A stretch of 64,000 nt of DNA from the NCBI GenBank assembly GCA_034433995.1, contig DAOTZU010000169.1:2109-66108 (forward strand). The letters are read 5' to 3'. This stretch comes from Anaerolineae bacterium (GTDB lineage Bacteria; Chloroflexota; Anaerolineae; UBA1429). The position numbers were made by a program, and so were the translations under genes. The notes below the pieces were generated by a model that was not told the DNA's origin, searched no databases, and saw only the letters and a program-made list of their open reading frames with translations. Shown one piece after another: positions 4,302 to 59,280 of this stretch. Each line of letters opens with the position of its first letter. The first letter of the stretch is position 1.

Positions 4302-4384
4302 CCTGGCGCAGAGGGATATAGTGAGGCTTTACGTTGGGCAAGGGCAGCGCTTTGCGTGGGCCAGGATGTGGTAGCGGCCGGCCC

Positions 4385-4413
4385 TTGACGCCCGGTGCCG
4401 ACGGCGCTATAGT
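4385..4413 (+). promoter_or_regulatory. sigma70-like promoter TTGACG-N17-TATAGT upstream of GntR-type regulator gene
   Basis: Hexamers with 17-nt spacer about 40 nt upstream of ATG 4450. Confidence 0.35.
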
Positions 4414-4449
4414 CTGGTTGGCGGTGTAGACTCTTGAAGGTGAGAGGTC

Positions 4450-5535
4450 ATGCCCAAGGCGACGGCAGAACGCGCACAACCTCTGTATCAGCGGGTCATC
4501 CAAGATATCTGCGCCCACATCGAAAGCGGCCAGTGGCGCCCTGGCGACAAGTTGCCCAGCGAGCACGCGCTGTGCGAGCGCTACGGCGTCAGCCAGATTA
4601 CGGTGCGCAGGGCGCTGCGCGAGCTGGCCCAGGCGGGACGGGTTTACAGCCACCACGGTTTGGGCTGGTTCGTCAGCGTGGAGAGGGCGGCCCAGGCTGC
4701 CGAGGTGACCCTGCTCCTCTTTGACCTCAATGAGGGCTATGCTCCCGTGGTGCATGCGTTGGCGCAGGCGTTATACCCCCATGGGGTCGTCTTGCGGTTG
4801 GCCTTGGTGGAAGGACCCGGTGAGGACGAAGCGGAGGCGGTGGCCGGGGCCATCGCCCGGGGCGCCGGCGCGCTGGTGCTGGATGTGACCGGCGAGGAGC
4901 GCCGCCTGATCCAACGGTACCATCGCCTGTTGCGCAACGTGGAGATCCCCGTGCTTTTTTTGCGCCACGAGGTGAACGGACTGGATGTGCCCGCAGCCAT
5001 CTTGGATGAGGCCAGCTGCATGGAACAGCTCACCCGCCATATTCTGGCCTTGGGGCATCAACGGGTGGCCTATGCGGGCAACGATCCTGCCTTGGTGGAG
5101 GGACAGCGGCAATACTGGGGTTTTGCCACCACCCTGTGGGATCATGGATTGGAGCTGCCCTTGGATTGGGTCTTTACCGGCGACCTCGCGGCGGAGCGGG
5201 AGGCGGCCCGTTTCCGCCGCGCCTTCCAAGGTGCCGAGCGACCCACGGCCCTCGTCTGCGCCTCCGCGCTCCAGGCGGCGGAGGCCATGCATCTCTTGCG
5301 CGAGCTGGAACTGCACTGCCCGGAGGACGTGGCCATCGTGGCTCTGGGCGATAGCGCTTTCGCTCCCCTTTTGCCCACGCCCCTCACCACCTTTCGCCTG
5401 GCCCTGGCCGAGCTGGGCCAGGCTGCCGCTCAGTTGCTCCTCGAACTGGTGGCCGGCCATCCTGTTCAAAGCGTTCGCCTCACCGGCGAGCTGGTTGTGC
5501 GCCAAAGCTGTGGTGCCCACGCTGCCCGAACCTAG
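4450..5535 (+). CDS. transcriptional regulator: GntR-type HTH fused to LacI/periplasmic-binding-protein-like sugar-binding domain
   Basis: N-terminal GntR HTH (LPSEHALCERYGVSQITVRRALRELA); C-terminal PBP-like domain; RBS GAAGGTGAGAGG. Confidence 0.75.
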   Translation: MPKATAERAQPLYQRVIQDICAHIESGQWRPGDKLPSEHALCERYGVSQITVRRALRELAQAGRVYSHHGLGWFVSVERAAQAAEVTLLLFDLNEGYAPVVHALAQALYPHGVVLRLALVEGPGEDEAEAVAGAIARGAGALVLDVTGEERRLIQRYHRLLRNVEIPVLFLRHEVNGLDVPAAILDEASCMEQLTRHILALGHQRVAYAGNDPALVEGQRQYWGFATTLWDHGLELPLDWVFTGDLAAEREAARFRRAFQGAERPTALVCASALQAAEAMHLLRELELHCPEDVAIVALGDSAFAPLLPTPLTTFRLALAELGQAAAQLLLELVAGHPVQSVRLTGELVVRQSCGAHAART

Positions 5536-5615
5536 CTCGTAAGAATCCTTGAGATGCTTGTGGCGTTCTCTATCCTCAGTTACGGTGGAATGCTTTCGGC
5601 TTGCCGGGGACTTGC

Positions 5616-6350
5616 TCAGCTGAGGGGATAGGGCACGTTGCGCCAGCCCGGCCGCGGCCGGGGGAAATGTCCGTTCTGCAAAAGAGCGTGCAGCCGGCGC
5701 CGCAAGGCTGCCAGTTCCTCTGGCGCGATCAATGCGGAGAGAGCTTGGACCAGCGGAGCTCCCTCTTGCGCCAAGGCGGCCCGCAGCCGGCCTAGTTCCT
5801 CTGCCATCTCTGGCGGGATGGGCTGCCCGGCATAATCCCAGATCACCGTGCGGAGCTTGTACTCCACATGAAAGGTGAGGCCGTGGTCAATGGCCCACAC
5901 CTGATCCTCTGGGCCCAGAAGGAGGTGCCCCCCTTTGCGGTCGGCGTTGTTGACCACGACATCGAACAGGGCGATGCGTTGCAGCTCGTCCTGGCGCGCC
6001 GGCGATTGGCGCCAGGTGAAATAGTGGGCCTCCTCATCCACGTCCACGTAGAGCTGCACCGAGCCGAGCCCCAGCGGTCCTTGGCGCAGCACCACCGGTG
6101 GGATGGCCGGCCAGCCCAAACTTTGGCCCAGGAGAAAGGTGGCCACCTCGCGGCGGCAGAGGGTGCCGGCGGGAAAATCCCACAGGGGGCGTTCGCCGCG
6201 GGCGGGCTTGTAGATGGCACAGAGCGCGCCCTCTGGGGCGTGCACCCGCGCCAAGAAGGCGGCGTTGGAGCTCCACACCAAGCGTCCCTCGAGTTTCAGC
6301 TCACCTTGGGCCAACAGGGCCAGGATCTCGGCGGTAGAAAGGGGCGCCAT
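5616..6350 (-). CDS. SCO1664-family protein (PI3/4-kinase-like fold; partner of DUF3090)
   Basis: ORF 5616..6524 (-); start taken at MAPLSTAEIL (6350) to avoid overlap with upstream gene; motifs NNADRKGGH, DHGLTFH. Confidence 0.65.
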   Translation of the reverse strand: MAPLSTAEILALLAQGELKLEGRLVWSSNAAFLARVHAPEGALCAIYKPARGERPLWDFPAGTLCRREVATFLLGQSLGWPAIPPVVLRQGPLGLGSVQLYVDVDEEAHYFTWRQSPARQDELQRIALFDVVVNNADRKGGHLLLGPEDQVWAIDHGLTFHVEYKLRTVIWDYAGQPIPPEMAEELGRLRAALAQEGAPLVQALSALIAPEELAALRRRLHALLQNGHFPRPRPGWRNVPYPLS

Positions 6351-6367
6351 GGGCGGAGGAGGGCGGC

Positions 6368-6910
6368 TCAGACTGTGGGGACCTGATCGTGGCCATTGCC
6401 CCGGGGGCAGAAATGGCCGCCGGGGTCTATGGGGTTGCCACAGAGGGTACAGATGGGCCGCCCTTGGCCGGCGACCTCCCGGGCCACGCGGCTGAGGGCG
6501 CGCATCTGCCCCAGGCCGGCCCAAAAGCGGGCCACCTGGAGGGGCGGGCCCTCTGCTGCGCCGGTCTCGGCGGCCTCCTGCACCACCAGCACCAGCAGCC
6601 CGCTGGCCTGGTCGAAGGCCAACGCCATCTGTCCCGCGACAAAGGCTGGCTCCACCGGCTGGCGCAGGGCCAGCGCGTCACCGGAGGGCTCCTCCAGGCT
6701 CGAGACGGGGCGCAGTTCCCGCTGCTCCAACTCTTCCAGAATCGTCTCGATGGCCCGGGCCAGGGCCACCACCTGTTCCTTTTCCAGTTTCAGGCTGATC
6801 ATCCGTTCGCCCTGGCTGGCTTGGAGGAAAAAGGTGCGTCGGCCCGGCTGGCCCACCGCTCCGATGGTGATGTGGGAGGTGGGATTAAACTCGTACACTA
6901 CTTCTGACAT
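6368..6910 (-). CDS. DUF3090-family protein (Cys-rich C-terminus)
   Basis: MSEVVYEFNPTSHITIGAVGQPGRRTFFLQASQGERM...PICTLCGNPIDPGGHFCPRGNGH; conserved partner of SCO1664 family. Confidence 0.7.
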   Translation of the reverse strand: MSEVVYEFNPTSHITIGAVGQPGRRTFFLQASQGERMISLKLEKEQVVALARAIETILEELEQRELRPVSSLEEPSGDALALRQPVEPAFVAGQMALAFDQASGLLVLVVQEAAETGAAEGPPLQVARFWAGLGQMRALSRVAREVAGQGRPICTLCGNPIDPGGHFCPRGNGHDQVPTV

Positions 6911-6934
6911 AGGTCTCCCCAGGTTTGCCCGGCG

Positions 6935-7483
6935 CTACGCTTCGGCCAGCCAGCGCCCCGTGGCCTCCAGGATGGGCAGCTTGGCCGCCAGGTTTTGCCG
7001 GCGCAGGGGCAGCACATCCACCAGGTCAAAACCGCAGGTGCGGAGCACCCTCTCCAGGCTCACAGCGCATGTGGGCCCTCCGCCTCCTCCGCCGCCGGCC
7101 ACGCAGAGCCCCACGGCCCGTTTATCGGCGATGCCGGCGCGGCCGGCATCGTGCATGCAGATGCGGCGCAAGCGGTCGGTGAAGGCCCGCAGGCTCTCGC
7201 TGAGATCGCCGAAATAGACGGGTGTGGCGAACACGGCCAGGTCCGCCGCTTTGATCTGGGCCACCAGGTTGGCGAAATCATCCTGGATGATGCAGCGGCC
7301 CTCGCTGCGGCAGATGCCCCAGCCGTCGTCTTCACACTGGCGGCAACGTTCGAGATGGCGGGTGGGCAAAAAGATGATCTCGCCCTGGCCGCCCCGCTCC
7401 TTCCAGCCCTGGAGCAACGCCTGGGCTGCCTTGGCCGTCTGGCCTGCAGGATTGCGGCTGCCGGAGAGGATGATGCATTGCAT
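6935..7483 (-). CDS. flavodoxin-like fold NAD(P)H-dependent FMN reductase / iron-sulfur flavoprotein family
   Basis: ORF 6935..7531 (-); start MQCIILSGSRNP at 7483 with GGAGGTG RBS; flavodoxin-like SGSxR motif and Cys cluster. Confidence 0.65.
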   Translation of the reverse strand: MQCIILSGSRNPAGQTAKAAQALLQGWKERGGQGEIIFLPTRHLERCRQCEDDGWGICRSEGRCIIQDDFANLVAQIKAADLAVFATPVYFGDLSESLRAFTDRLRRICMHDAGRAGIADKRAVGLCVAGGGGGGGPTCAVSLERVLRTCGFDLVDVLPLRRQNLAAKLPILEATGRWLAEA

Positions 7484-7625
7484 GATGGCACCTCCCAAAA
7501 GGGTTAAGATCTCTGAGCGCTGCCTTGACAAAGGCGAACAGGATGCTTGCCCATTTGCACACCATCAGGATAATCGCTAGGGGAAACTCTGTCAAACCTT
7601 TGGGCCGCCGTCCTTGCGGGGCGGT

Positions 7626-46830: not shown

Positions 46831-48891
46831 TTATGGCGTGACGCGGCGCGGAACGACCGTGATCGTCCCCAGTGCGATCCCCTCCTCTGGCCGCGCCACA
46901 CCCATCGGCAAGACGGGACGCGTGCGCTCCTCATCCTCATAGACCCAAAGCTTGATGGTGTACGTGCCCGGCTTGACGCGCCAGGGCACGAGCATATCGT
47001 AGCGCTCGCGGATGATCGTCCCAGCCTCCCAGCGGGAAGAGGGGCGGGCTCCGCCAAGGAAATGGCTCTGGTCCCACACCGGCAGGCCGCGCAAGAGCTG
47101 GATATAGCCCTCGGCATCTTCAAAGCGGACGCTGGCATAGTAATCCACCGTGGTGGGCTGCTCCAGGCGCCAATAGTAGCTGAGGCTGGCCGCCTCGCCC
47201 ACTGCTACCGGCTGGGTTGGCCCGCCAAAACCCACCAACGTGAGGGAAGGACCAAAACGCACGCCGCGCAGCTGATGTTCCTGGGGGATGGCAGCGACAA
47301 CACCGCTGGGTGGGGCGGGGACCATGCGATAGACATCCATCATCGGCAGCCAGACATCTTTGAAGCGCGGCAGGGGCACGGTGGCGGAGACCATCGTTTC
47401 CACTATGTTGAGGCCCACCGGCGATAGGGTCAGATGGTGCCATACCTCCTCTGGGAGCCGCAGGCCTGGGATCACATAGAGCGGAGCCTCGGCCGCGCGC
47501 AGTTCGGCGGCGAACTCGTCCCAATCCAGGTCAGGCACGCTCAGGCCGGCTGAGAGCTCCACATCCGGCCGCCAGCCGCCGATGGTTTGATAGTAGGCCA
47601 GCGGGGCCCAGGCCCAGAAATCCGCCAACACGTGGGCGTTGGGCTCTAGGCGCAGGGCGAGGTAGCGGGCGTAATCGTAGGCAGAATAGTCCTGGCTGCG
47701 GTCGAGAACGCTAAAATCCCGCGCCACCAGATAGGTCGGCAGGCCGAGCAGGAGGAGGCCAAGCAGCAAGGGCACAGAGGCAACCGAGATCGGGCCGGCC
47801 CCTCGGACCGGCCGCGCGGCCCATCTTTCCACCCATCCGATGAGCGCAGCGCATCCCACCCCTAGCCAGATGGCCATGAGGACATAGATGGGCAAGAAAT
47901 ATTGAAAGATGTTGTGGATGCCGTAGATGAGGATCATCCCCATGGTCAAGACGCTGCCCACAAGGGCATAGAGCAAAAAGGGGCGGTTTTCCTGCCAAAG
48001 GCGCACCGCGCCCCACAAGGCCAGGGCCAGGCCAACGGCGGTGAACTCGTAGAGGGGAAAGAGGACCGCCGTCTTGAGCCGGATGCGCGCCACGACCACG
48101 TTGGCCGTAGGGGCCTGCAAGACCGAGCTGCTCTGCATGCCGACGGTAATCATCTTGAGAAAGGTGCGCCAATCGGAGGCGTCGGCCCACATCATGGTGG
48201 GCTTTTGCAGGGAGCGCAGGGGCAGGTAGAGGTTGATGGCGAACCCCGCCAGGAAAAGCCCAGCCAGCGGCAAAAGCTCACGCCAGGGCAGGCGGCGCTG
48301 GCGGTCCCAATGCACCGCGCCCCAATAGACCAGCATGGCCGGGGCAAAGAATTGGATCAGGTGGTGATTGCCCATCCCCAAGCCCAACACATAAAACGCC
48401 CAACGCAGCGTGCCGGGGCGTCCCCTCCGTTGCCAGGTGAGCAACAGATAACTGATCAAGGCCACGAGAAAGGCGTTGAGGGCATAACTTTCGGCCAGGG
48501 TGGCGTTGGCCCAGAGGGTGGAGCTGACGCCCAGGGTGAGGGCAGCCAGGCTGGCGGCCAGGCGGCGGCCGGTCACATCCCAGACGATGAAAAACACCAC
48601 CACCACCGTGCCCGTGGCAAAGACGGCGGACATCAGGTTCACCCGATAGGCGATATCCCCCACCGGCAAAAAGGTGAAGAGCTTGCCCAGAAGCGCGTAG
48701 AGGGGGTAGCCCGTGTGATGGATGATCCCCAGGTGGTAGGCCGCCGCGGCCATCTCGGCCATGTCGTACCACATGGCGGTGGGAGCCAGGGTACGGAGAT
48801 ACAGCGCCCCACAGAGGAGGCCCACCAACGCCGCCCAGAGGCGATGATCCAGCAGGGGCAGGGCGATCTGTATCCTTGGTTTCGCTTTCAT
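46831..48891 (-). CDS. polytopic membrane protein, DUF2723 / GT-C (PMT-like) glycosyltransferase family
   Basis: About 11 TM segments N-terminal, C-terminal soluble domain; GGGAGGA RBS. Confidence 0.6.
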   Translation of the reverse strand: MKAKPRIQIALPLLDHRLWAALVGLLCGALYLRTLAPTAMWYDMAEMAAAAYHLGIIHHTGYPLYALLGKLFTFLPVGDIAYRVNLMSAVFATGTVVVVFFIVWDVTGRRLAASLAALTLGVSSTLWANATLAESYALNAFLVALISYLLLTWQRRGRPGTLRWAFYVLGLGMGNHHLIQFFAPAMLVYWGAVHWDRQRRLPWRELLPLAGLFLAGFAINLYLPLRSLQKPTMMWADASDWRTFLKMITVGMQSSSVLQAPTANVVVARIRLKTAVLFPLYEFTAVGLALALWGAVRLWQENRPFLLYALVGSVLTMGMILIYGIHNIFQYFLPIYVLMAIWLGVGCAALIGWVERWAARPVRGAGPISVASVPLLLGLLLLGLPTYLVARDFSVLDRSQDYSAYDYARYLALRLEPNAHVLADFWAWAPLAYYQTIGGWRPDVELSAGLSVPDLDWDEFAAELRAAEAPLYVIPGLRLPEEVWHHLTLSPVGLNIVETMVSATVPLPRFKDVWLPMMDVYRMVPAPPSGVVAAIPQEHQLRGVRFGPSLTLVGFGGPTQPVAVGEAASLSYYWRLEQPTTVDYYASVRFEDAEGYIQLLRGLPVWDQSHFLGGARPSSRWEAGTIIRERYDMLVPWRVKPGTYTIKLWVYEDEERTRPVLPMGVARPEEGIALGTITVVPRRVTP

Positions 48892-50031: not shown

Positions 50032-51657
50032 TCAATCTTCCACATCCATGGCGAGGGAGAGAGGATTTTGGCGGCCGCCCGCGGGTTTGGCTCTAGGCGC
50101 GCGCTGAAAGGTAATGTTCACCCCTTGGGCCGGGGGATAATCCACCCTTTTCCCTGCCAGGAGCTCGGCGATGGTGAGGATCTGGAGGCGGGGATGCTGG
50201 CCCCAGGGGGAGGTGTAAAAGCCGGCGCTGGCCGCCTCGGCCCGCATGGCCGGGGAGGGCTCCTGCAGCGTGATCAGCACGCCGATCTCGGCCTGCTCTC
50301 GGTTGACCACGCCCCACAGGTCGCGCAGATGGGCCACGGTGGTATGGCCGGCCTTGACAGAAAAGACGATCTGCTTGGTTTTGCCGTTGGGATCATCGTG
50401 GAAATAGAGCCGCCCATCTACGCCTTTATCGGCACCCCGTTTCCCGGCCGCGGGACGGGCGCCCACCAGCCCCAGGGCCCACCATTGGAACTGGAAGGGA
50501 TCTTGCGCAGCCAATTCCTCGGCATCGGCCAGGGTGACGGGCTCGCCGATCACCTCATAGTGGACGCTATCGCCAAAGGTGTCGCTCAGGCGCCGTTTGA
50601 TCAAGTTAATGGCCAGGTGGGTAATATCAATGCCGATCCAGCGGCGGTTGAGCTTTTGCGCGGCGGCAATGGTGGTGCCACAGCCGCAGAAAGGATCCAA
50701 GACGATATCGCCCTCGTTGCTGGAGGCGCGGATGATGCGCTCCAAAAGGGCCACAGGTTTTTGGGTGGGGTAGCCGAGGCGTTCTACAGCTTGCGCGCCG
50801 ACAGGGGGAATATCCGTGATGACTGACCTGATCAGCGTCCCCTTTTGCTCATGCAAATAGCGTTTGAGATAGGGCCTGCCCGTTTTGCTCCAGAACAATC
50901 TCCCGTCTTGATCCAGCATTTCCAGTTTTTCGCGCACGACGCGCCACCCCCAACGGGGCGTATAGCCTTTGTATTCGTAGGTCAGATTGGGCCTAGCTCC
51001 CATCGTGGCTGAGCGGATGATGTGATCCAGACGATACCTCCCTCGCTCGTCAGTATAGCGGTAAAAACTTTTAACGTAATCTACGCTGTGCGGAATATAG
51101 ACCCGGTTCCAAGTTGCCTGTTCAGTTTTGACATAATAGAGTATGACATCATGCACGGCTCCCCATTTCTTGGAATCATTGTGGCTGCTTGTGCGTTGCC
51201 AGATAAGCTCATTGCGAAATTGACGCGGTCCAAACACCGCGTCCATCAGCAGGCGCAGATAGGGGCTGGCCGTGGGGTCGCAATGGAGATAGATGCTGCC
51301 GGTGGGCTTGAGCACGCGGTGCAGCTCCACCAGGCGGGGCGCCATCATGGCCAAATAAGCCATCATGTTGCTGCCGCCCAGCAAGCGATAGAAGGCTTGC
51401 AAAGTCTGGGAGACCTGGCCGCCTCGTTCCACCATCTCTTGGTAGGCGCGGGCCGCGGCCTGGTCCCACGTCCAAGTATCCTCAAAAGCTTTGATCTGGG
51501 CGGCAGCCTGAGAGCCGTTATGCTCGGCAAAGAGGACGTTGTAGGTGGCGTTACTGTTAAAGGGGGGATCGAGGTAGATCAGATCTACCGACTCATCTTT
51601 GATATAGCGCTGGAGGATCTCCAAATTATCGCCGTAGTAAAGCAGATTCTCGGCCAT
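50032..51657 (-). CDS. beta-class N6-adenine/N4-cytosine DNA methyltransferase with C-terminal Mrr-cat-like (PD-(D/E)xK) domain
   Basis: Motif IV DPPF (LIYLDPPFNSN) precedes motif I (VLDPFCGCGTT); C-terminus GADKGVDGRLYF...IVFSVK; visibly lower GC than neighbours. Confidence 0.8.
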   Translation of the reverse strand: MAENLLYYGDNLEILQRYIKDESVDLIYLDPPFNSNATYNVLFAEHNGSQAAAQIKAFEDTWTWDQAAARAYQEMVERGGQVSQTLQAFYRLLGGSNMMAYLAMMAPRLVELHRVLKPTGSIYLHCDPTASPYLRLLMDAVFGPRQFRNELIWQRTSSHNDSKKWGAVHDVILYYVKTEQATWNRVYIPHSVDYVKSFYRYTDERGRYRLDHIIRSATMGARPNLTYEYKGYTPRWGWRVVREKLEMLDQDGRLFWSKTGRPYLKRYLHEQKGTLIRSVITDIPPVGAQAVERLGYPTQKPVALLERIIRASSNEGDIVLDPFCGCGTTIAAAQKLNRRWIGIDITHLAINLIKRRLSDTFGDSVHYEVIGEPVTLADAEELAAQDPFQFQWWALGLVGARPAAGKRGADKGVDGRLYFHDDPNGKTKQIVFSVKAGHTTVAHLRDLWGVVNREQAEIGVLITLQEPSPAMRAEAASAGFYTSPWGQHPRLQILTIAELLAGKRVDYPPAQGVNITFQRAPRAKPAGGRQNPLSLAMDVED

Positions 51658-51790
51658 GGAAGACCACCTCAGATTATCTCACGGGTATTATACACCATAA
51701 ACGTGAGCGATGTCATTTGGGGCCACGAGGTCGCCCTTTCCCGCATGGAGCCGCGGCGCGATAAGCGCGCACGTTCTCCGCGTGTGGCGG

Positions 51791-54061
51791 CTAGAGCGCG
51801 GGCAGGTTGGGCAAGTGTTTGCGCAGCTCCGCCTGCAGCGCCTCTTTCATGCGCTGCACGCTGGCCGCGCTCTCGCCCTCAAACCGCAGCGAGAGCTTGG
51901 GCGAGGTGTTGGAGGCGCGGATCAAGGCCCAATCGTGCTCACCAAAGTAGATGCGGGCGCCGTCAATATCGATCACCCGGTGGTCGCGGATAAAAGCGTC
52001 GCGCACGGCGTCTACTACGTCCCATTTGAGATAGTCGGGGCAGTCGAGGCGCAATTCCGGCGAACTGACATAGCGCGGCAGGCCCTCCAAGATCTCGGCC
52101 AGCACGACGCTGAGGGGTTTGCCGGCGCGATCCAGGTAGCTCAGCAAGAGCGCGGCGGCATAGAGGGCGTCGTCGAACTCAAAGGGCGGATCGTTGAAAA
52201 AGACGTGGCCGCTCAGCTCGCCGCCGATGACGGCCCGCTCCTGTTGCATCCGGGGCAGGATGGAGGTGTTGCCGCATTTGGCCATCACCGGGATGCCGCC
52301 GTATTTGCGCACGCCGTCAAAGAGGGTCTCGGAGCAGCGCACCTCGAACACGGCCTTGCCCGGCCCGTTGCGAAGGGCCTCGCGGGCGTAGAGCAGAAGG
52401 AACGTATCCGGCGGGACGACGGTGCCGCGTTCATCCACCATGCCGATGCGGTCGCCATCGCCATCGAAGGCCAGGCCCACATCACATCCCTCGCGCACCA
52501 CCAGGGCCGCCAATTCTTGCAGGTTCTCCGCCTCGCTGGGGTCAGGGGGATGGTGGGGAAAGGTGCCATCGGGCTCGCAATAGAGGGGCACCACCTCGCA
52601 CCCCAGCTCCCGCAGCAGGCGCACAGCCAAGGGGCCGCTCACGCCGTTGCCGCCATCCACGGCCACTTTGAAGGGGCGAGAGAGCTGCACTTTGTGCAGG
52701 ATGCAGTTGAGGTAGGGGTAGACCACATCCCGCGCCAGGCGGTTGCCCTGGCCGGAGGCAAAGGCGCCGCTGGCGATGAGCCGCTCGATCTTTTGCAATT
52801 CCAACCCAGAGAGAGCCTCCATGCCCACCTGGAGCTTCAGGCCGTTGAACTCGGCGGGGTTGTGGCTGGCCGTCACCTGCACAGCGCCATCCACCCAGAA
52901 ATGGTTGACGGCAAAGGAGGTGAGGGGCGTGGGCACCTGGCCGATGTCGATCACCTCGCAACCGGCAGCCAAGAGGCCCTGGATGGCCGCCTCGCTAAAG
53001 GCCGCCGAGCTGGGGCGCACGTCGCGCCCGACCACGATCTGCCTGCGCCCCGTGCGTCGCTGCATGTAGGTGCCAAAGGCCCGGCCCAGGCTCTCCAAGA
53101 CGGTGGTGGTCAGCTCGGTGCCCACCAAACCGCGGATATCGTATTCGCGAAAGATCGTCCGGCTGACGGCGAGCTTTTCCTGCAGGGCATAATCGTGGAG
53201 CAGCGAGCGCAGCGCTTGGCCCAGCTTCACCGGATCGTGGCGCACCACCAGCCGCTCCTCGCCCGTCAGAGGATCGCGCTCCATCACCTCGGCGGCAAGA
53301 TCGCGCTGCACCAGGATGGCGCCTTCGACCAGGGCCATCTCTTGGGGGGTTTCGGGGAAAATGACCAATTGCGAATCATCGTGCACCACCCGCTCCGTCT
53401 CCACCAAACGGGACGAGGCGTTGCGGTAGCGCTCCAGCACCTCCGGGCTGAGGGAATCGCCGTGGTGGGTGAGGACGTAATCCAAACGGAAGCCGCAGTG
53501 CTTGTGGATGGCCCGCACGTGGTCGGCCACGGAGTAGCCTTCGGTCTGGTTGGGCTGGGTCATCAGGTTGCAGACAAAGATCTTGCGGGCGTTGGAGGCG
53601 CGGATGGTCTGGTTGATCTGCTGGATCAACAGGGCGGGGATCAGGTTGGTAAAGAGGGAGCCGGGGCCGATGACGATGGCGTCGGCCTCCTTGAGGGCGG
53701 TCAGTACCTCCGGCGTGGGGCGAAAATCGTCGGCCGGCCGGCCCAGGACCTCCGAGATCAAAAAGACGCGGCGGATGGTAGCCCCCGGCTTGCCGCGGGT
53801 GATGGCCGCCTCGCCCACCAGGTGGCTGCCGTCGCTCAGCTCGGCGCAGACCTCCACCCGGTCCAGGGTGGGGATGAGGACCTCGTCGGCGGTGGCGCCG
53901 ATGGCGGAGTGGAGTTGGGCAAAGGCGGCGCCGGCGTTGGCCGGCGGCACGACGCCCACCGTGCGCCAAGGGGCGTCTTTGCAGGCGGAGAGCATCATGG
54001 CCAGGCCTTGGGTGCCGGCCAGGGCGACGACCAGAGAGCGCTTGTGGTTCGGTGTGGTCAT
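51791..54061 (-). CDS. fusion: YvcK/CofD-like (gluconeogenesis factor family) N-domain + phosphohexomutase (PGM/PMM/GlmM-type) C-domain
   Basis: N-terminal YvcK-like region of about 320 aa; C-terminal mutase with TASHNP active-site loop and GDGDR metal loop. Confidence 0.8.
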   Translation of the reverse strand: MTTPNHKRSLVVALAGTQGLAMMLSACKDAPWRTVGVVPPANAGAAFAQLHSAIGATADEVLIPTLDRVEVCAELSDGSHLVGEAAITRGKPGATIRRVFLISEVLGRPADDFRPTPEVLTALKEADAIVIGPGSLFTNLIPALLIQQINQTIRASNARKIFVCNLMTQPNQTEGYSVADHVRAIHKHCGFRLDYVLTHHGDSLSPEVLERYRNASSRLVETERVVHDDSQLVIFPETPQEMALVEGAILVQRDLAAEVMERDPLTGEERLVVRHDPVKLGQALRSLLHDYALQEKLAVSRTIFREYDIRGLVGTELTTTVLESLGRAFGTYMQRRTGRRQIVVGRDVRPSSAAFSEAAIQGLLAAGCEVIDIGQVPTPLTSFAVNHFWVDGAVQVTASHNPAEFNGLKLQVGMEALSGLELQKIERLIASGAFASGQGNRLARDVVYPYLNCILHKVQLSRPFKVAVDGGNGVSGPLAVRLLRELGCEVVPLYCEPDGTFPHHPPDPSEAENLQELAALVVREGCDVGLAFDGDGDRIGMVDERGTVVPPDTFLLLYAREALRNGPGKAVFEVRCSETLFDGVRKYGGIPVMAKCGNTSILPRMQQERAVIGGELSGHVFFNDPPFEFDDALYAAALLLSYLDRAGKPLSVVLAEILEGLPRYVSSPELRLDCPDYLKWDVVDAVRDAFIRDHRVIDIDGARIYFGEHDWALIRASNTSPKLSLRFEGESAASVQRMKEALQAELRKHLPNLPAL

Positions 54062-54082
54062 GGTTCCCTCCCAATAAGCGTT

Positions 54083-54250
54083 TTACTCGAGCCGCATGGC
54101 GAACAGGCCGACCGTGTCATCCTCTGGGTTGATCTTGTTGCGCCAGCGTCTCTCCCGGCGGGCGGGGGAGCGGGGATTGGCATAGGCCTTGACCTGCACA
54201 GGCACGCCACTTGCTATGTGCACGACAATCCATATCTTTTTACCTTTGGG
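54083..54250 (-). CDS. small hypothetical protein (55 aa) in AT-rich island
   Basis: MPKGKKIWIVVHIASGVPVQVKAY...; ATG in AT-rich context; no recognisable family. Confidence 0.2.
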   Translation of the reverse strand, partial: PKGKKIWIVVHIASGVPVQVKAYANPRSPARRERRWRNKINPEDDTVGLFAMRLE

Positions 54251-54380
54251 CATGCTACTTTTTCCTTTAACATCAAATAAGATACCATGCACTGGTTTCT
54301 TTTGCTGGTTTGAGGCTACCCCTATTATGCCCAAGATCATCCCCTTTGGCAAACGCCGTGGGCAGATGGTCGAGAGGGCC

Positions 54381-54465
54381 CCCGTCGGTTGGAAACCGAC
54401 GGCTGTGGATGGTAAGCCCGCGTTGCGGGCTTGGCAGGCAGAGCCGTCGGATTGGATCCGACGGC
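54381..54465. repeat. two near-identical 7-N7-7 palindromes (CCGTCGG-N7-CCGACGG) plus further hairpins upstream of the AOR gene
   Basis: CCGTCGGTTGGAAACCGACGG (54382-54402) and GCCGTCGGATTGGATCCGACGGC (54443-54465), with AAGCCCGC-GTT-GCGGGCTT hairpin between. Confidence 0.35.
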
Positions 54466-54672
54466 GAGCAAGGGCCACATGCCATCGGTGGTTTAACGCA
54501 TTGCTACGGGCGGAGTCGCCCGCAACTCGCCCTCGTTCAACACCCCCTGTGAGCCTGCGTTTGACAACGTTGTCCCAGGCCGTTAGAATTTCGTGCAACA
54601 CGGGGCACGCCCGCTGGGTGCCGCCGATGGCTGTCGGTCGATCGGGGTAAGCTACACAATAAGGAGGTCGGG

Positions 54673-56541
54673 ATGAAAGGGTATGCGGGCAAGATTCTGC
54701 GGGTCAATCTGAGCAGCGGCGACATCTGGACGGAGGAGCCGCCGGAGAGCTTTTACCGCCGCTATCTGGGCGGGCAGGGGTTCATTGCGTATTACCTTTT
54801 GAAAGAGTTGCCCAAGGGGGCGGATCCCCTGGGGCCGGAGAACCTGCTGATCTTTGCCGGCGGCGCGGTGACGGGCATCCCCGTGGCCGGCGCCGGGCGC
54901 AGCGCTGTGGGGGGCAAATCCCCCTTGACCGGCGGCTATGGGGAATCCGATGTGGGGGGCTTTTTCGGCGCCGAGCTCAAGCGCGCCGGCTATGATGCCA
55001 TCGTCATCACCGGGAGGGCGCCCCGGCCCGTGTACCTCTGGGTGCACGATGGCCAGGCCGAGCTCCGCTCCGCGGAAAAGCTCTGGGGCTTGAGCACCCT
55101 GGATTGCCAAGAGGCCATCCAGGCCGAACTGGGCGATGCCCGTGTGCGCCTGGCCATGATCGGGCCGGGCGGCGAGAAATTGGTGCGCTATGCCTGCGTG
55201 ATCAACGACCTGCGCCACGCCGCCGGCCGCTGCGGCCTGGGCGCGGTCATGGGCTCCAAGAACTTGAAGGCTGTGGCCGCCCGTGGCACGGGCAATATCC
55301 CCGTGGGCGATCCGGACGGTCTGCGAGAGCTGGCCAAGTGGATGCGCGATAACTGGAAGGAGAAGGCCTGGGGCTTGCACGATACCGGCACCGATGGCGG
55401 CCTGCTGGATCTGAGCGAGCAGGGGGCGCTGCCCACGCGCAACTTCCAAGACGGCCAGTTCGCCGGCGCGGACAAGATCACCGGCGCCACCATGCGCGAT
55501 ACCATCTTGATCGACCGCGAAGGCTGCTACGCCTGCCCCGTGCGCTGCAAGCGGGTGGTGCGGGTGGATGACGCCGAATATCAGGTCAACCCCATCTATG
55601 GCGGCCCCGAATACGAGACCACCGCTGCCTTTGGCTCCAACTGCGGCGTGGATGACCTGCGGGCCATCGCCAAGGCCCACGAGATCTGCAATGCCTACAG
55701 CCTGGATACCATCTCCACCGGCATGGCTGTGGCCTTTGCCATGGAATGCTACGAGGCGGGGTTGCTCACCAAGGAGATGACCGGCGGGCTGGAGCTCAAC
55801 TTTGGCAACGCGGCGGCCATGGTGGAGCTCACCCGTCTCATCGGCGAGCGCCAGGGCATCGGCGATCTTTTGGCCGAAGGCCCCCGCCGCGCGGCGGCCA
55901 AGATCGGCCCCAAGGCGTTCGACTTTGTGGTGGATGTCAAGGGGCAGCCCTTCCCCATGCACGAATGTCGCACCCGCCACGGCCAGGCCCTGGGCTACGC
56001 CGTCTCTCCCACCGGCGCCGATCATGTGCACAACTTTTGGGATGGCGGCATGGCCAAAGAGCCTTTGGAGGAGAGTTGGCAGGAGTTGGGCATCTATGAG
56101 CCGGTGCCCCAGACGGTATTGAACCCGGCCAAGGTGCGGGCCTATACCGTGGTGACCAATTGGTCATGGCTGCCCAACCATTTGGGGCTCTGTGTGTTCC
56201 TTCCCTGGTCACGGGATCAGGTGGTGCAGCTCGTGCGGACCATCACTGGCTGGCGCACGAACATGTACGAGCTTTTGCAGGTGGCCGAGCGCGGCGTGAC
56301 CATGGCCCGCGCCTTTAACCTGCGCGAGGGGTTTGGCCGGGCCGATGACGTGTTGCCCCTGCGGATGCGCATGCCTCATGTCAGCGGCAGCTTGAACGAG
56401 AAGCCGGTGGATCCGGAGGTGTTGGACGAGAACCTCACCACGTTCTACGCCATGATGGGCTGGGATCCGCAGACGGGCATGCCCACCTTGGCCAAGTTGC
56501 AGCAATTGGATATCGCCTGGGTGGCCGAGGCGATCAAGTAG
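54673..56541 (+). CDS. aldehyde:ferredoxin oxidoreductase (tungsten-containing AOR family)
   Basis: MKGYAGKILRVNLSSG...; AOR N and C domains, Cys ligands for 4Fe-4S; AAGGAGG RBS. Confidence 0.85.
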   Translation: MKGYAGKILRVNLSSGDIWTEEPPESFYRRYLGGQGFIAYYLLKELPKGADPLGPENLLIFAGGAVTGIPVAGAGRSAVGGKSPLTGGYGESDVGGFFGAELKRAGYDAIVITGRAPRPVYLWVHDGQAELRSAEKLWGLSTLDCQEAIQAELGDARVRLAMIGPGGEKLVRYACVINDLRHAAGRCGLGAVMGSKNLKAVAARGTGNIPVGDPDGLRELAKWMRDNWKEKAWGLHDTGTDGGLLDLSEQGALPTRNFQDGQFAGADKITGATMRDTILIDREGCYACPVRCKRVVRVDDAEYQVNPIYGGPEYETTAAFGSNCGVDDLRAIAKAHEICNAYSLDTISTGMAVAFAMECYEAGLLTKEMTGGLELNFGNAAAMVELTRLIGERQGIGDLLAEGPRRAAAKIGPKAFDFVVDVKGQPFPMHECRTRHGQALGYAVSPTGADHVHNFWDGGMAKEPLEESWQELGIYEPVPQTVLNPAKVRAYTVVTNWSWLPNHLGLCVFLPWSRDQVVQLVRTITGWRTNMYELLQVAERGVTMARAFNLREGFGRADDVLPLRMRMPHVSGSLNEKPVDPEVLDENLTTFYAMMGWDPQTGMPTLAKLQQLDIAWVAEAIK

Positions 56542-56617: not shown

Positions 56618-56820
56618 TGTCGTTTAACCCATCCGCTGTGCCCGCTGGCAGGATGCCACTGTGTTGACGGGCCCCTACCACAAGGTTTAACGAACCTCTA
56701 ACCTCCCCTTAACTCTCTGTTAGCTCTGGCTTAATGGACCTGTGGCATGATTCTAAAGGAAGAGGGTTTTCTCGCAGCGTGATGATAGGAACCAGTTCTT
56801 CGCCGAAGGAAAAGGCACAT

Positions 56821-59280
56821 ATGGCCAAAGCCGATCTCCATGTCCATAGCAAATTCTCTGACCGCCCATCTGAATGGTGGTGGCAGCGCCTGGGGGCTGC
56901 CGAATCCTATACCGAGCCCGAATTCATCTATCGCACTGCCAAAGCCCAGGGTATGGATTGGGTCACCATCACCGATCACGACCAGATCGCCGGCGCACTC
57001 CAACTCCAAGAGGCGCATCCTCGCGATGTCTTGACCGGCGTCGAGACGACGGCATTTTTCCCCGAAGATGGCTGTAAAGTGCATGTCCTGGTCTGGGGTT
57101 TGAGCGAGGCCGAGTTTCGCGATACGCAGCGTCTGCGCACCAACATCTATGATCTGCGCGACTATCTGCACGAGCATAACCTGGCCCACGCTGTGGCCCA
57201 CGCCACCTTTGCCGTCAATGGCCGGCTGACCCTATCCCATCTGGAGAAACTGATCCTGCTCTTTAACGTCTTTGAGGGGCTGAACGGCGGACGCAACCGC
57301 CTCAACAATGAGACCTGGACGCGCATCCTGCGCGGTTTGACGCCGGAACATTTGGAGGATCTTTATCACCAATACCGCATCGCGCCGGTGGGCGAGGAGC
57401 CTTGGATCAAGGGGTTCACCGGCGGCTCGGACGACCACGGGGGCATCTTTATCGGGCGCACTTATACCGTTGCCGATGGCGCCACGCCGACGGCTTTTCT
57501 GCGCAATGTGATGCAGAGGCGCTCCTGCGCCGAAGGGCGGCAAAACGATTACCAATCGTTGGCCTTTACCCTCTACAAGATCGGCTACGACTATGCCCGG
57601 GCCAAGGGCGAAGAGCGGCCCAGCCCCATCCTGACGCAGCTTACGGAGATGGTCTTTGACCGGCATGCGCCGACCATCGCGGAGAAGCTGCGGGTGCGGG
57701 CTTTTAAATCCATCAGCAAAAAAGAGCACAAGATTGAGCGCACCTGTCTGGAGCTGATCCATGATCTGCAGGTGCACCATCGCGCGCCGGTAGACGAGAA
57801 GCTGGCCCTCGTCTATCACAAAGCGGCCGGAATCGTGGACGAGTTTGTCAAGATCTTTTGCGAGACCGTCGTGCACGATGTGAAAAAGGGCCAAGTGGTG
57901 CGTTTGGTGCGCGATCTATCTTCTTCTTTACCCGCCGTGTTGCTCTCGGTGCCTTTTCTTTCCACCTTGAAACATCTTTATCAAGGCCGAGCACTGCTCA
58001 ACCAGTTGGAGGTGCGTTTTAGCCCCGGTCGTCCCCGCCAGAAGCGCGTGCTTTGGTTCACCGATACCCTGACCGATCTGAACGGCGTGGCCATCACCTT
58101 GCGCAAGGTCGGCTGGCTGGCGCATGTCACCGGCCGCCAACTGCAGATCGTCACCTCGCTCGACCCGAACCAGAGCGAGACGAACCTCCCTCCCAATGTG
58201 ATCAATCTTCCCACAGCTCACGCGTTCAATTTGCCCACGTATGAGAGCTATGCCATGCGCATCCCCTCGCTCCTCGACGCTCTAGAGCGTCTCTATCCGT
58301 TTGAGCCCGATGAGGTCCTGATCTCCACCCCCGGCCCCATCGGGCTCTTGGGGCTATTGGTCGCGCGGCTCTTCAATGCCCGCAGTGTGGGCATCTATCA
58401 CACCGATTTCACGCTGCAAGCCAAAGAGATCACTGGCGAGGAGACGATTGCGAATCTCCTGGAGGCCTATACCCGCTGGTTCTATTCCTCGGTGGATGAG
58501 ATTCGCGTGCCCACTCTGGAATACCGGCGCATCCTGACGGCCCGCGGCCTGGATCCTACCCGCATGAAGCTTTTTCGCCGGGGGATCGATGCCGAGCTCT
58601 TCCGCCCCAGGCCCGAAGGGCGGGCCTATTTGGCCGAACATTTCAACCTCAGGCGTGGGCCAACCCTGCTTTACGTGGGGCGCATTTCCAAGGACAAGGA
58701 TTTGGATTTTTTGGGGCAGGTCTATGTGCGGCTCTTGACCCGGCATCCCGATCTCAACCTGGTCATCACCGGCGACGGCCCCTATCTGGCTGAACTGCGC
58801 GAACGCTGGCGACATCTGCCGCGAGCCGTTTTCACCGGGCGGCTCGCCCATGAGGAGCTGCCGCTGGTGTACTCTGGCGCGGATGTGTTTATCTTCCCCA
58901 GCATCACCGATACCTTTGGGCTGGTCGTTTTGGAGGCTCAGGCCTGTGGGCTGCCGGCCGTCGTCTCCAACGTGGGCGGGCCCCAGGAGATCGTGACTCC
59001 TCACCAGACCGGCTATGTGTTGCCCGCCCGCGATCTGGAGGCTTGGGTGGCCCAAGTGGACGAGCTTTTGCTCATGCGTGAGGCACGGCCACGCGATTAT
59101 GAGGCCCTCCAGGTGGCGGCCCGTGAAATGGTTTTGCATCACTGCGATTGGGACGCTGTCTTGCGTGATCTTTTGGGCGAGGAACCCGGAGCCGAAAGCG
59201 CGGAACCGGCGGCGTCCCCAGAGGCGCAAAAGAATAGCCAGTGGCTCGTCTCGCCCTTGCCGGTAGCGGCCGGATCGTGA
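56821..59280 (+). CDS. fusion of PHP-domain metal-dependent phosphoesterase and family-4 glycosyltransferase (GT4)
   Basis: ADLHVHSKFSD...ITDHD PHP motifs; C-terminal GT-B signature (E...GLVVLEAQACGLPAV). Confidence 0.8.
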   Translation: MAKADLHVHSKFSDRPSEWWWQRLGAAESYTEPEFIYRTAKAQGMDWVTITDHDQIAGALQLQEAHPRDVLTGVETTAFFPEDGCKVHVLVWGLSEAEFRDTQRLRTNIYDLRDYLHEHNLAHAVAHATFAVNGRLTLSHLEKLILLFNVFEGLNGGRNRLNNETWTRILRGLTPEHLEDLYHQYRIAPVGEEPWIKGFTGGSDDHGGIFIGRTYTVADGATPTAFLRNVMQRRSCAEGRQNDYQSLAFTLYKIGYDYARAKGEERPSPILTQLTEMVFDRHAPTIAEKLRVRAFKSISKKEHKIERTCLELIHDLQVHHRAPVDEKLALVYHKAAGIVDEFVKIFCETVVHDVKKGQVVRLVRDLSSSLPAVLLSVPFLSTLKHLYQGRALLNQLEVRFSPGRPRQKRVLWFTDTLTDLNGVAITLRKVGWLAHVTGRQLQIVTSLDPNQSETNLPPNVINLPTAHAFNLPTYESYAMRIPSLLDALERLYPFEPDEVLISTPGPIGLLGLLVARLFNARSVGIYHTDFTLQAKEITGEETIANLLEAYTRWFYSSVDEIRVPTLEYRRILTARGLDPTRMKLFRRGIDAELFRPRPEGRAYLAEHFNLRRGPTLLYVGRISKDKDLDFLGQVYVRLLTRHPDLNLVITGDGPYLAELRERWRHLPRAVFTGRLAHEELPLVYSGADVFIFPSITDTFGLVVLEAQACGLPAVVSNVGGPQEIVTPHQTGYVLPARDLEAWVAQVDELLLMREARPRDYEALQVAAREMVLHHCDWDAVLRDLLGEEPGAESAEPAASPEAQKNSQWLVSPLPVAAGS

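Follow-up and report, generated by a model that had tools for sequence, protein, structure and literature searches.

The 64,000-nucleotide stretch of Anaerolineae bacterium contig DAOTZU010000169.1 analyzed here (the window) carries on its minus strand a gene for a 756-residue protein, in which a reduced YvcK/GlmR-like domain, the N-domain, is joined to a four-domain phosphohexomutase. The joining of CofD/YvcK and mutase is real and has been conserved within the lineage. Judged from its residues and profiles, the protein may be described, with moderate confidence, as an active phosphohexomutase to which a non-catalytic module derived from YvcK/GlmR has been added; this module would bind a UDP-sugar and/or dock GlmS. 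A full-text search found no literature on the fusion or on the reduced YvcK subfamily, and public annotations cover half the protein each, being "CofD family", "YvcK family", or "phosphomannomutase/phosphoglucomutase".

An earlier note on this DNA, made from the sequence alone, had described a single open reading frame (ORF) joining the two parts and had named a hidden frameshift as a point to check. The ORF contains no frameshift or stop between the CofD and mutase domains, and Pfam places CofD (PF01933) at residues 52-224, followed by PGM_PMM_I, II, III, and IV at residues 302-742, with all five domains exceeding their gathering scores. Four contigs that were assembled independently (ENA, JGI, and Logan) encode exactly this 756-residue protein, and its neighbors there are also the same. 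When 5.8 billion protein clusters were searched, the list comprised 120 matches at 53-100% identity, and all but one of the clusters listed carry both PF01933 and the mutase domains. More than 100 Anaerolineae/Chloroflexi clusters, at 53-82% identity, have this architecture, and the named sources of the listed fusion clusters are Chloroflexi/Anaerolineae metagenome-assembled genomes. The junction itself is conserved in the homologs (…DYALQxxLSVSRxIFREYD…), and mean pairwise identity across the fusion family is 66% for the N-domain as well as for the mutase. Being as conserved as the mutase, the N-domain is evidently not decaying and is still under selection.

The phylogenetic distribution, which the note had also proposed to check, proved to be narrow. 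An exhaustive hidden Markov model search of 1.84 billion representatives at 50% identity recovered the fusion family as one representative (P0121, E 7e-110), and scanning GTDB at one genome per species gave at least three fusion loci (L001-L003), two in Anaerolineae and one in Chloroflexota. These results indicate that the fusion is restricted to this lineage.

AlphaFold2 (AF2) modeling gives the N-domain a YvcK fold (predicted local distance difference test, pLDDT, 88.5; predicted template modeling score, pTM, 0.88). The top Foldseek matches were the YvcK structures 2o2z, 2hzb, 2q7x, and 2ppv, with template modeling (TM) scores of 0.69-0.70 and a best E of 3.5e-21, while CofD/FbiA structures reached TM 0.36-0.47 at 12-18% identity. 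The domain is a shortened one. Its match to PF01933 (140 bits, gathering score 30) covers only profile positions 108-274 of 290, the C-terminal two thirds, and its match to the YvcK family TIGR01826 (136 bits, cutoff 196) covers only positions 113-274 of 310. A profile built from 20 N-domains of the family aligns to residues 2-51 and 127-273 of Bacillus halodurans YvcK (2hzb), with about nine residues between them, and also at an RH motif near residue 300; about 65-75 residues (YvcK ~52-126) are deleted in every member of the fusion family. The glycine loop GGGTG has become AGTxG in the family (AGTQG in the window protein), with little or no variation at A15, G16, T17, and G19, and VADDGGSSG has become VPP(A/V/I)(N/G/D)(A/S)GAAF family-wide, so that DDGGSSG reads NAGAAF in the window protein. 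In the C-terminal part, the motifs GPGSL(F/Y)T and CN(L/V)MTQ are common to YvcK. As it lacks both the central segment and the Asp-Asp/Asn motif and stays below the cutoff of the YvcK family, the N-domain is best seen as a divergent, probably pseudo-enzymatic paralog. The "YvcK domain" of the earlier note therefore stands as regards fold and contact residues, but it is reduced, its catalytic residues are replaced, and its score lies below the family cutoff.

Previous studies allow the published GlmR residues to be mapped onto the fusion. The uridyltransferase activity of Listeria monocytogenes GlmR was assigned to D40, D41, and N198 (Pensinger et al. 2023), and the D38A D39A variant of B. subtilis GlmR was non-functional (Suits et al. 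2026). In the window protein these catalysis-linked positions are N42, A43, and A143, and family-wide they are N/G/D, A/S, and A/T/S, where L. monocytogenes N198 was mapped onto B. halodurans N195 by an assumed constant numbering offset of +3. According to Foulquier and Galinier (2017/2020; PMC5482804, PMC7525490), T13, N217, Y264, and R300 contact NAD in B. halodurans YvcK and correspond to T14, N218, Y265, and R301 of B. subtilis; Y265A and R301A abolish the binding of UDP-N-acetylglucosamine (UDP-GlcNAc), while T14A has little effect and the variant still binds ligand. Three of these four nucleotide-sugar contact positions are kept in the YvcK-like domain. N165, Y212, and R274 (B. subtilis N218, Y265, and R301) are each invariant in all 59 fusion proteins aligned, Y212, R274, and H275 remain invariant once stand-alone reduced relatives are added, and R274-H275-D276 does not vary among the fusion proteins, the stand-alone reduced forms, and the canonical YvcKs of Chloroflexota. 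By alignment, the fusion proteins lack the catalytic apparatus of the YvcK family, and they keep most of the predicted nucleotide-sugar pocket residues.

The C-terminal module has the defining features of the alpha-D-phosphohexomutase superfamily, namely the four domains and all four loops. The TASHNP and GDGDR loops are intact, as the note had read them, and so are the sugar- and phosphate-binding loops; the active-site serine, Ser399, is present and invariant in the family. Likewise invariant are the residues corresponding to R15, Y17, S108, N110, D242/244/246, R247, E325, S327, H329, R421, S423, N424, and T425 of Pseudomonas aeruginosa phosphomannomutase/phosphoglucomutase (PaPMM/PGM, AlgC), which we take to be catalytic or ligand-binding positions. 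Two ligand-shell changes, K285 to Arg575 and H308 to Asn598, are fixed family-wide. The fused mutase is predicted to be catalytically active.

As to the kind of mutase, a phmmer search of the PDB gave PaPMM/PGM as the closest solved relative (E 2.5e-106), and the AF2 model of the module superposes on 2fkm with TM 0.95, a root-mean-square deviation (rmsd) of 1.9 Å, and 40% identity. Bacterial GlmM structures match it at 23-26% identity with rmsd above 4 Å. The module passes none of the NCBIfam equivalog cutoffs, scoring 391 bits for PgmG (PMM/PGM; cutoff 600), 361 for Arch_GlmM TIGR03990 (439), 294 for PRK09542 (618), and 184 for bacterial glmM TIGR01455 (447.55), and its PgmG and Arch_GlmM scores are similar. 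Its phosphate loop, RASNT, is presumably the PMM/PGM form and not a GlmM-type loop. On these scores the fused mutase is PMM/PGM-like, about as close to the archaeal-type GlmM models, and not of the bacterial GlmM type, and the label "GlmM-type" given to it in the note has to be corrected (PMM/PGM structures reach 39-40% identity). As an archaeal-type enzyme, it could nevertheless act in the GlmM step.

Relatives of the fusion suggest where the N-domain came from. Long-form relatives of ~855 residues carry two strongly hydrophobic N-terminal helices in front of the same reduced YvcK-like domain; the 756-residue clade, including the window protein, is without them, and no remnant of them was found in the window. 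The extra ~100 residues were considered as the missing half of YvcK, which was rejected, as they are the two hydrophobic helices. The next-best matches of the exhaustive search were stand-alone reduced proteins of 380-430 residues with the same two helices, and the named ones are mostly from Chloroflexota, including Ardenticatenales. These proteins align to the N-domain profile without a break over its full length, while canonical YvcKs match it in two or three separate stretches. The likely history is that of a membrane-anchored YvcK paralog that lost the central segment and the acidic residues, was fused to a mutase in Anaerolineae, and lost its anchor in the clade of the window protein.

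Gene context, which for the relatives means the loci within ±10 kb of each match, gives an independent link between the reduced YvcK-like module and the synthesis of UDP-GlcNAc. The gene glmS (772 and 741 bits, cutoff 418) ends 7-9 nt 5' of a stand-alone reduced yvcK-like gene in two divergent lineages of Chloroflexota, whose loci (L092 and L093) fall into different 50%-identity clusters, and a canonical yvcK (TIGR01826, 243-290 bits) lies directly 5' of the stand-alone reduced gene in L090, L091, and L094. In L094, alt_bact_glmU (TIGR03991, 384 bits, cutoff 225) overlaps the downstream end of the reduced gene, so that an archaeal-type GlmM would be the expected partner. In addition, L095 has glmS next to the fusion and convergent with it, and in L084 the two genes are 3 kb apart. 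The note's link between a YvcK-like module and amino-sugar synthesis thus gains support from the stand-alone copies and from the glmS genes near these two fusions. The yvcJ-yvcK-whiA context of Firmicutes was not recovered, since the Pfam listings of the context loci and the ten scanned window neighbors contain no RapZ-like (yvcJ) or WhiA family.

According to these observations, the protein might work as follows. The C-terminal module would interconvert hexose 6-phosphate and hexose 1-phosphate via phosphoserine Ser399 and Mg2+. The N-terminal module would be an anchor-less reduced member of a Chloroflexota-specific YvcK/GlmR paralog, without phosphotransfer or uridyltransfer chemistry, that keeps most of the nucleotide-sugar pocket (Asn165, Tyr212, and Arg274-His275) and may serve as a non-catalytic sensor and/or dock, whose partner would be a UDP-sugar formed at the end of the pathway (most likely UDP-GlcNAc) and/or GlmS. 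In the AF2 model, the domain junction consists of a helix (residues 277-294) and about eight poorly ordered residues, followed by Arg305/Tyr307, the phosphate-binding N-terminus of the fused mutase. By way of this short helix-linker, the N-terminal module would modulate or position the mutase step and, with it, the nucleotide-sugar supply for the envelope. The short junction makes coupling of the modules physically plausible, and regulatory coupling of the YvcK-like module to the mutase is itself plausible. Because of the gene context, the pathway served would most likely be UDP-GlcNAc synthesis, running from GlmS through the mutase to an alternative GlmU, with the fused mutase as archaeal-type GlmM. 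The architecture and its conservation, the intact mutase loops, the deletion, the residues lost and retained, the fold, and the gene contexts were observed; ligand binding, regulation, and substrate identity are the parts of this account that we infer.

Several points weigh against it. The window neighbors of the fusion are not glm genes, and neither glmS nor glmU was found anywhere in the 64 kb. The full-length AF2 model reaches a pTM of 0.62, with linker pLDDT below 50 and no confident geometry between the domains. The position equivalent to T14 in the glycine loop (Q18) is variable in the family, and Y265 is not kept in every active GlmR, being absent in L. monocytogenes. As no equivalog cutoff is passed and the nearest match is PMM/PGM (AlgC, PgmG), a glucose or mannose role would be equally compatible by sequence alone. 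Moreover, the long-form genomes hold two further PMM/PGM paralogs, and the GlmM role could belong to the adjoining one. This stand-alone paralog lies next to the fusion, on the same strand, in four of the five long-form loci (L003, L085, L086, and L088); it shares 41-46% identity with the fused mutase, has GEA(A/S)GH in the sugar-binding loop, Tyr for His308, and Ser/Leu for Lys285, and scores 375-392 bits for Arch_GlmM, as high as or above the fused mutase. The adjacent mutases were also considered as recent duplicates of the fused one, which was rejected in view of that identity and the different sugar-site residues. The third paralog, in a glycolysis cluster of L086, is more AlgC-like, since it has TGSHNP, keeps Lys and His, and scores 545 bits for PgmG; it would seem to be the housekeeping PGM/PMM.

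A more specific form of the sensor account, which we consider unlikely, would make the N-domain a catalytically dead, once membrane-anchored GlmR paralog that arose in Chloroflexota as a pseudoenzyme dedicated to sensing UDP-GlcNAc and docking GlmS, and that one lineage of Anaerolineae joined to a GlmM of the archaeal type. The fusion would then take glucosamine 6-phosphate from GlmS, and the level of the end product would gate the formation of glucosamine 1-phosphate. If so, it would be a hard-wired version of the Firmicute GlmR-GlmS checkpoint and the first phosphohexomutase with a built-in nucleotide-sugar allosteric domain.

The mutase might instead be a PMM/PGM for glucose or mannose activation, with the YvcK-like part as a mere tether or oligomerization scaffold, anchored in the ancestral long form, without ligand sensing or any tie to UDP-GlcNAc; glucose 1-phosphate or mannose 1-phosphate would then be made for exopolysaccharide, glycolipid, or protein glycosylation. 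The AlgC-type top matches in sequence and structure, the RASNT loop, and the two strong hydrophobic helices of the long-form relatives all agree with this explanation, as do the GT4 and TMEM260/PMT_2-like glycosyltransferase genes 3-5 kb from the fusion in the window and the PMT_2 gene near the fusion in L085. B. subtilis YvcK, as well, binds UDP-glucose in addition to UDP-GlcNAc. Nevertheless, the family, stand-alone forms included, shows no variation at N165, Y212, and R274-H275, which is more than a pure scaffold would need, and the stand-alone reduced domain is found in operons with glmS, yvcK, and alternative glmU. The separate AlgC-like paralog of L086 would already fill the housekeeping role, and the glycosyltransferase neighbors are not conserved across loci. 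We regard this explanation as unlikely.

An improbable explanation is that of a bifunctional enzyme for two consecutive steps, in which the N-domain would still act as a GlmR-like uridylyltransferase or, with an NDP-activated donor, as a CofD-like phosphotransferase, and the intermediate would be channeled. GlmR orthologs form UDP-GlcNAc from GlcNAc-1-phosphate and UTP in vitro, CofD/FbiA proteins are phosphotransferases, the N-domain is conserved to the same degree as the mutase, and part of the glycine loop survives (A15, G16, T17, and G19). Fusion of enzymes for consecutive pathway steps is, besides, a common evolutionary pattern. Against this, all three residues assigned to GlmR catalysis are replaced family-wide, and the N-domain scores below the YvcK family cutoff. 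FbiA holds its catalytic metal by the N-terminal Asp45 and Asp57, and the deletion of ~65-75 residues after the motif would, by sequence position alone, include the counterpart of Asp57. Furthermore, canonical yvcK and alternative glmU adjoin the reduced paralog in related genomes, so that the transferase step is already covered there.

That the fusion is an artefact, due to a frameshift from sequencing or assembly, to chimeric joining, or to two separate genes being read through, can be dismissed with near certainty, since P0105 (525 residues), the lone relative that appears mutase-only with a separate ORF upstream, comes from the noisy long-read contig L095, whose aldehyde:ferredoxin oxidoreductase gene, fusion N-domain, and glmS are all frameshifted into pieces (3303-7489), whereas the window protein recurs exactly in four independent assemblies and LSVSRxIFREYD is kept in the more than 100 clusters. 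For the same reason, P0105 was rejected as a true mutase-only homolog.

The preferred account, an active mutase with a non-catalytic YvcK/GlmR-derived module, bears on a debated question. The mode of action of GlmR/YvcK has been described as that of a GlmS activator, a UDP-GlcNAc sensor, or an accessory uridyltransferase, and nearly all the evidence comes from Firmicutes and Actinobacteria. The reduced family provides a natural separation-of-function variant, in which the catalysis-linked residues are lost and most of the pocket residues are kept, and its domain is either fused to a mutase or linked in operons with glmS, yvcK, and glmU. Should the N-domain bind UDP-GlcNAc and either modulate the mutase or dock GlmS, this would show that sensing by the fold is ancient and can be separated from catalysis. 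The PMM/PGM paralog acting as GlmM in a phylum with an alternative (archaeal-like) GlmU would be identified as well, and the fusion would be a rare phosphohexomutase with an appended regulatory domain.

The positions of the gene and its parts are collected in Table 1. The start codon ATG lies at 54061-54059, with an in-frame TAA at 54085-54083, eight codons 5'. A 56-residue ORF directly upstream is possibly co-transcribed with the fusion gene, and its membership in the feature is doubtful; it has no family match and was rejected as a conserved partner, as it occurs only in contigs of the same species. In 51500-54800, no riboswitch or ribozyme (e.g., glmS) was found 5' of the fusion, with no Rfam match at E ≤ 1. 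An 856-residue ORF on the opposite strand (51710..54280, plus) was rejected as a shadow ORF typical of DNA with 65% GC.

Table 1. Features of the fusion gene and of related loci. Positions refer to the window unless a locus is named.
Feature	Position	Strand	Basis or remark
Fusion gene, 756 aa + TAG stop	51791..54061	-	ORF list, Pfam, identical protein on four assemblies, ortholog clusters
Shine-Dalgarno-like GGGAGGG	54066..54072	-	4 nt 5' of ATG at 54061; sequence reading
Sigma-70-like promoter match TTGCCA-17-CATAAT	54324..54352	-	5' of 56-aa ORF and fusion gene; consensus match only
56-aa ORF MPKGKKIWIVVH…	54083..54253	-	directly 5' of fusion gene, same frame, one TAA between
Reduced YvcK/GlmR-like Rossmann-type domain, aa 9-222	53396..54037	-	profile alignment, AF2, Foldseek
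C-terminal beta-hairpin region and long helix of YvcK-like domain, aa 231-295, with R274-H275-D276	53177..53371	-	AF2 secondary structure
Tyr212 codon, equivalent to GlmR Y265	53426..53428	-	alignment to 2hzb Y264; 59/59 fusion proteins
Phosphohexomutase module, aa 301-748, four domains, PMM/PGM-like	51818..53161	-	Pfam, phmmer, Foldseek
Ser399 codon, predicted catalytic phosphoserine in TASHNP (397-402)	52865..52867	-	equals PaPMM/PGM S108; invariant in family
Metal-binding loop DGDGDR, D533, D535, D537, R538	52448..52465	-	invariant in family
Sugar-binding loop GGELSGH (613-619), E615, S617, H619	52205..52225	-	alignment, sequence reading
Phosphate-binding loop RASNTSP (715-721), R715, S717, N718, T719	51899..51919	-	alignment, sequence reading
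Adjacent stand-alone mutases	L003 8177-9496; L085 12604-13980; L086 2064-3455; L088 10600-11967	same as fusion	
L094 operon: canonical yvcK (339 aa), reduced anchored yvcK-like gene (409 aa), alt_bact_glmU (421 aa)	L094 6973-10492		8-nt and overlapping junctions

The window neighbors of the fusion, namely a DNA methylase, an aldehyde:ferredoxin oxidoreductase, and glycosyltransferases, are unrelated to it and not conserved across loci. No conserved operon partner of the fusion was found in the window, and the 64 kb contain no second YvcK and no second mutase that we could find. Downstream lies the DNA methylase gene with an Mrr-like domain, and upstream, in divergent orientation, the aldehyde:ferredoxin oxidoreductase gene. 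The methylase (50032-51657, minus strand; promoter-like site 51716..51687) is a 541-residue N6/N4 DNA methylase with a C-terminal Mrr_cat/NA-iREase1-like nuclease-fold domain. Its gene occupies the position of other genes in L084, L087, and L095 (glmS in L084 and L095) and is thus probably an insertion.

Among the glycosyltransferase neighbors, one is a 686-residue TMEM260-like/PMT_2-type membrane protein (46831-48891, minus strand); the PMT_2 gene of L085 lies ~6 kb from the fusion there, and the pairing is not conserved in other loci. Another is an 848-residue protein (56734-59280, plus strand), whose GT4 domains cover only residues 469-811. Its N-terminal ~450 residues have no Pfam match and start with HVHSKFSD…ITDHD, a candidate PHP-like pattern. 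Finally, the segment 42803-45969 (minus strand) encodes a T2SSE ATPase (type IV pilus/type II secretion system) with an N-terminal response-regulator receiver and MshEN, followed by a T2SSF platform protein.

Compared with known systems, the N-terminal module is most similar to YvcK/GlmR (UPF0052, TIGR01826; B. subtilis and L. monocytogenes GlmR, Mycobacterium tuberculosis CuvA; 2hzb, 2o2z, and 2ppv), with which it has in common the fold (TM 0.70), a strong match over the C-terminal two thirds, and the equivalents of N218, Y265, and R301. As well, the glmS/glmU context of the reduced subfamily echoes the role of GlmR in UDP-GlcNAc supply. Unlike YvcK/GlmR, however, it is missing residues ~52-126, has the Asp-Asp and the LPN Asn replaced, carries an AGTxG loop, and scores below the family cutoff; it has no yvcJ/rapZ or whiA neighbors, it is covalently joined to a mutase, and its close relatives bear two N-terminal transmembrane helices. 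CofD/FbiA (2-phospho-L-lactate transferase of F420 synthesis) belongs to the same PF01933 with a distant fold relationship, but its metal-binding aspartates are not conserved in the fusion, and there is no F420 context.

The mutase module resembles PaPMM/PGM (AlgC; 1k35 and 2fkm) and the PgmG subgroup in its four domains, all loops, 39-40% identity, TM of 0.92-0.95, and rmsd of ~2 Å. It differs from them in Arg575/Asn598, in a PgmG score of 391 below 600, in the 300-residue N-terminal extension, and in the presence of up to three paralogs per genome. With bacterial GlmM (TIGR01455; B. subtilis 7ojr and Staphylococcus aureus 6gyz), whose pathway step the note had proposed for it, it has the superfamily and the catalytic loops in common, but scores 184 bits against 447. 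For archaeal-type GlmM (TIGR03990), the partner of the GlmU families TIGR03991/TIGR03992, the fused mutase scores 361, near its PgmG score of 391, yet under the cutoff of 439.

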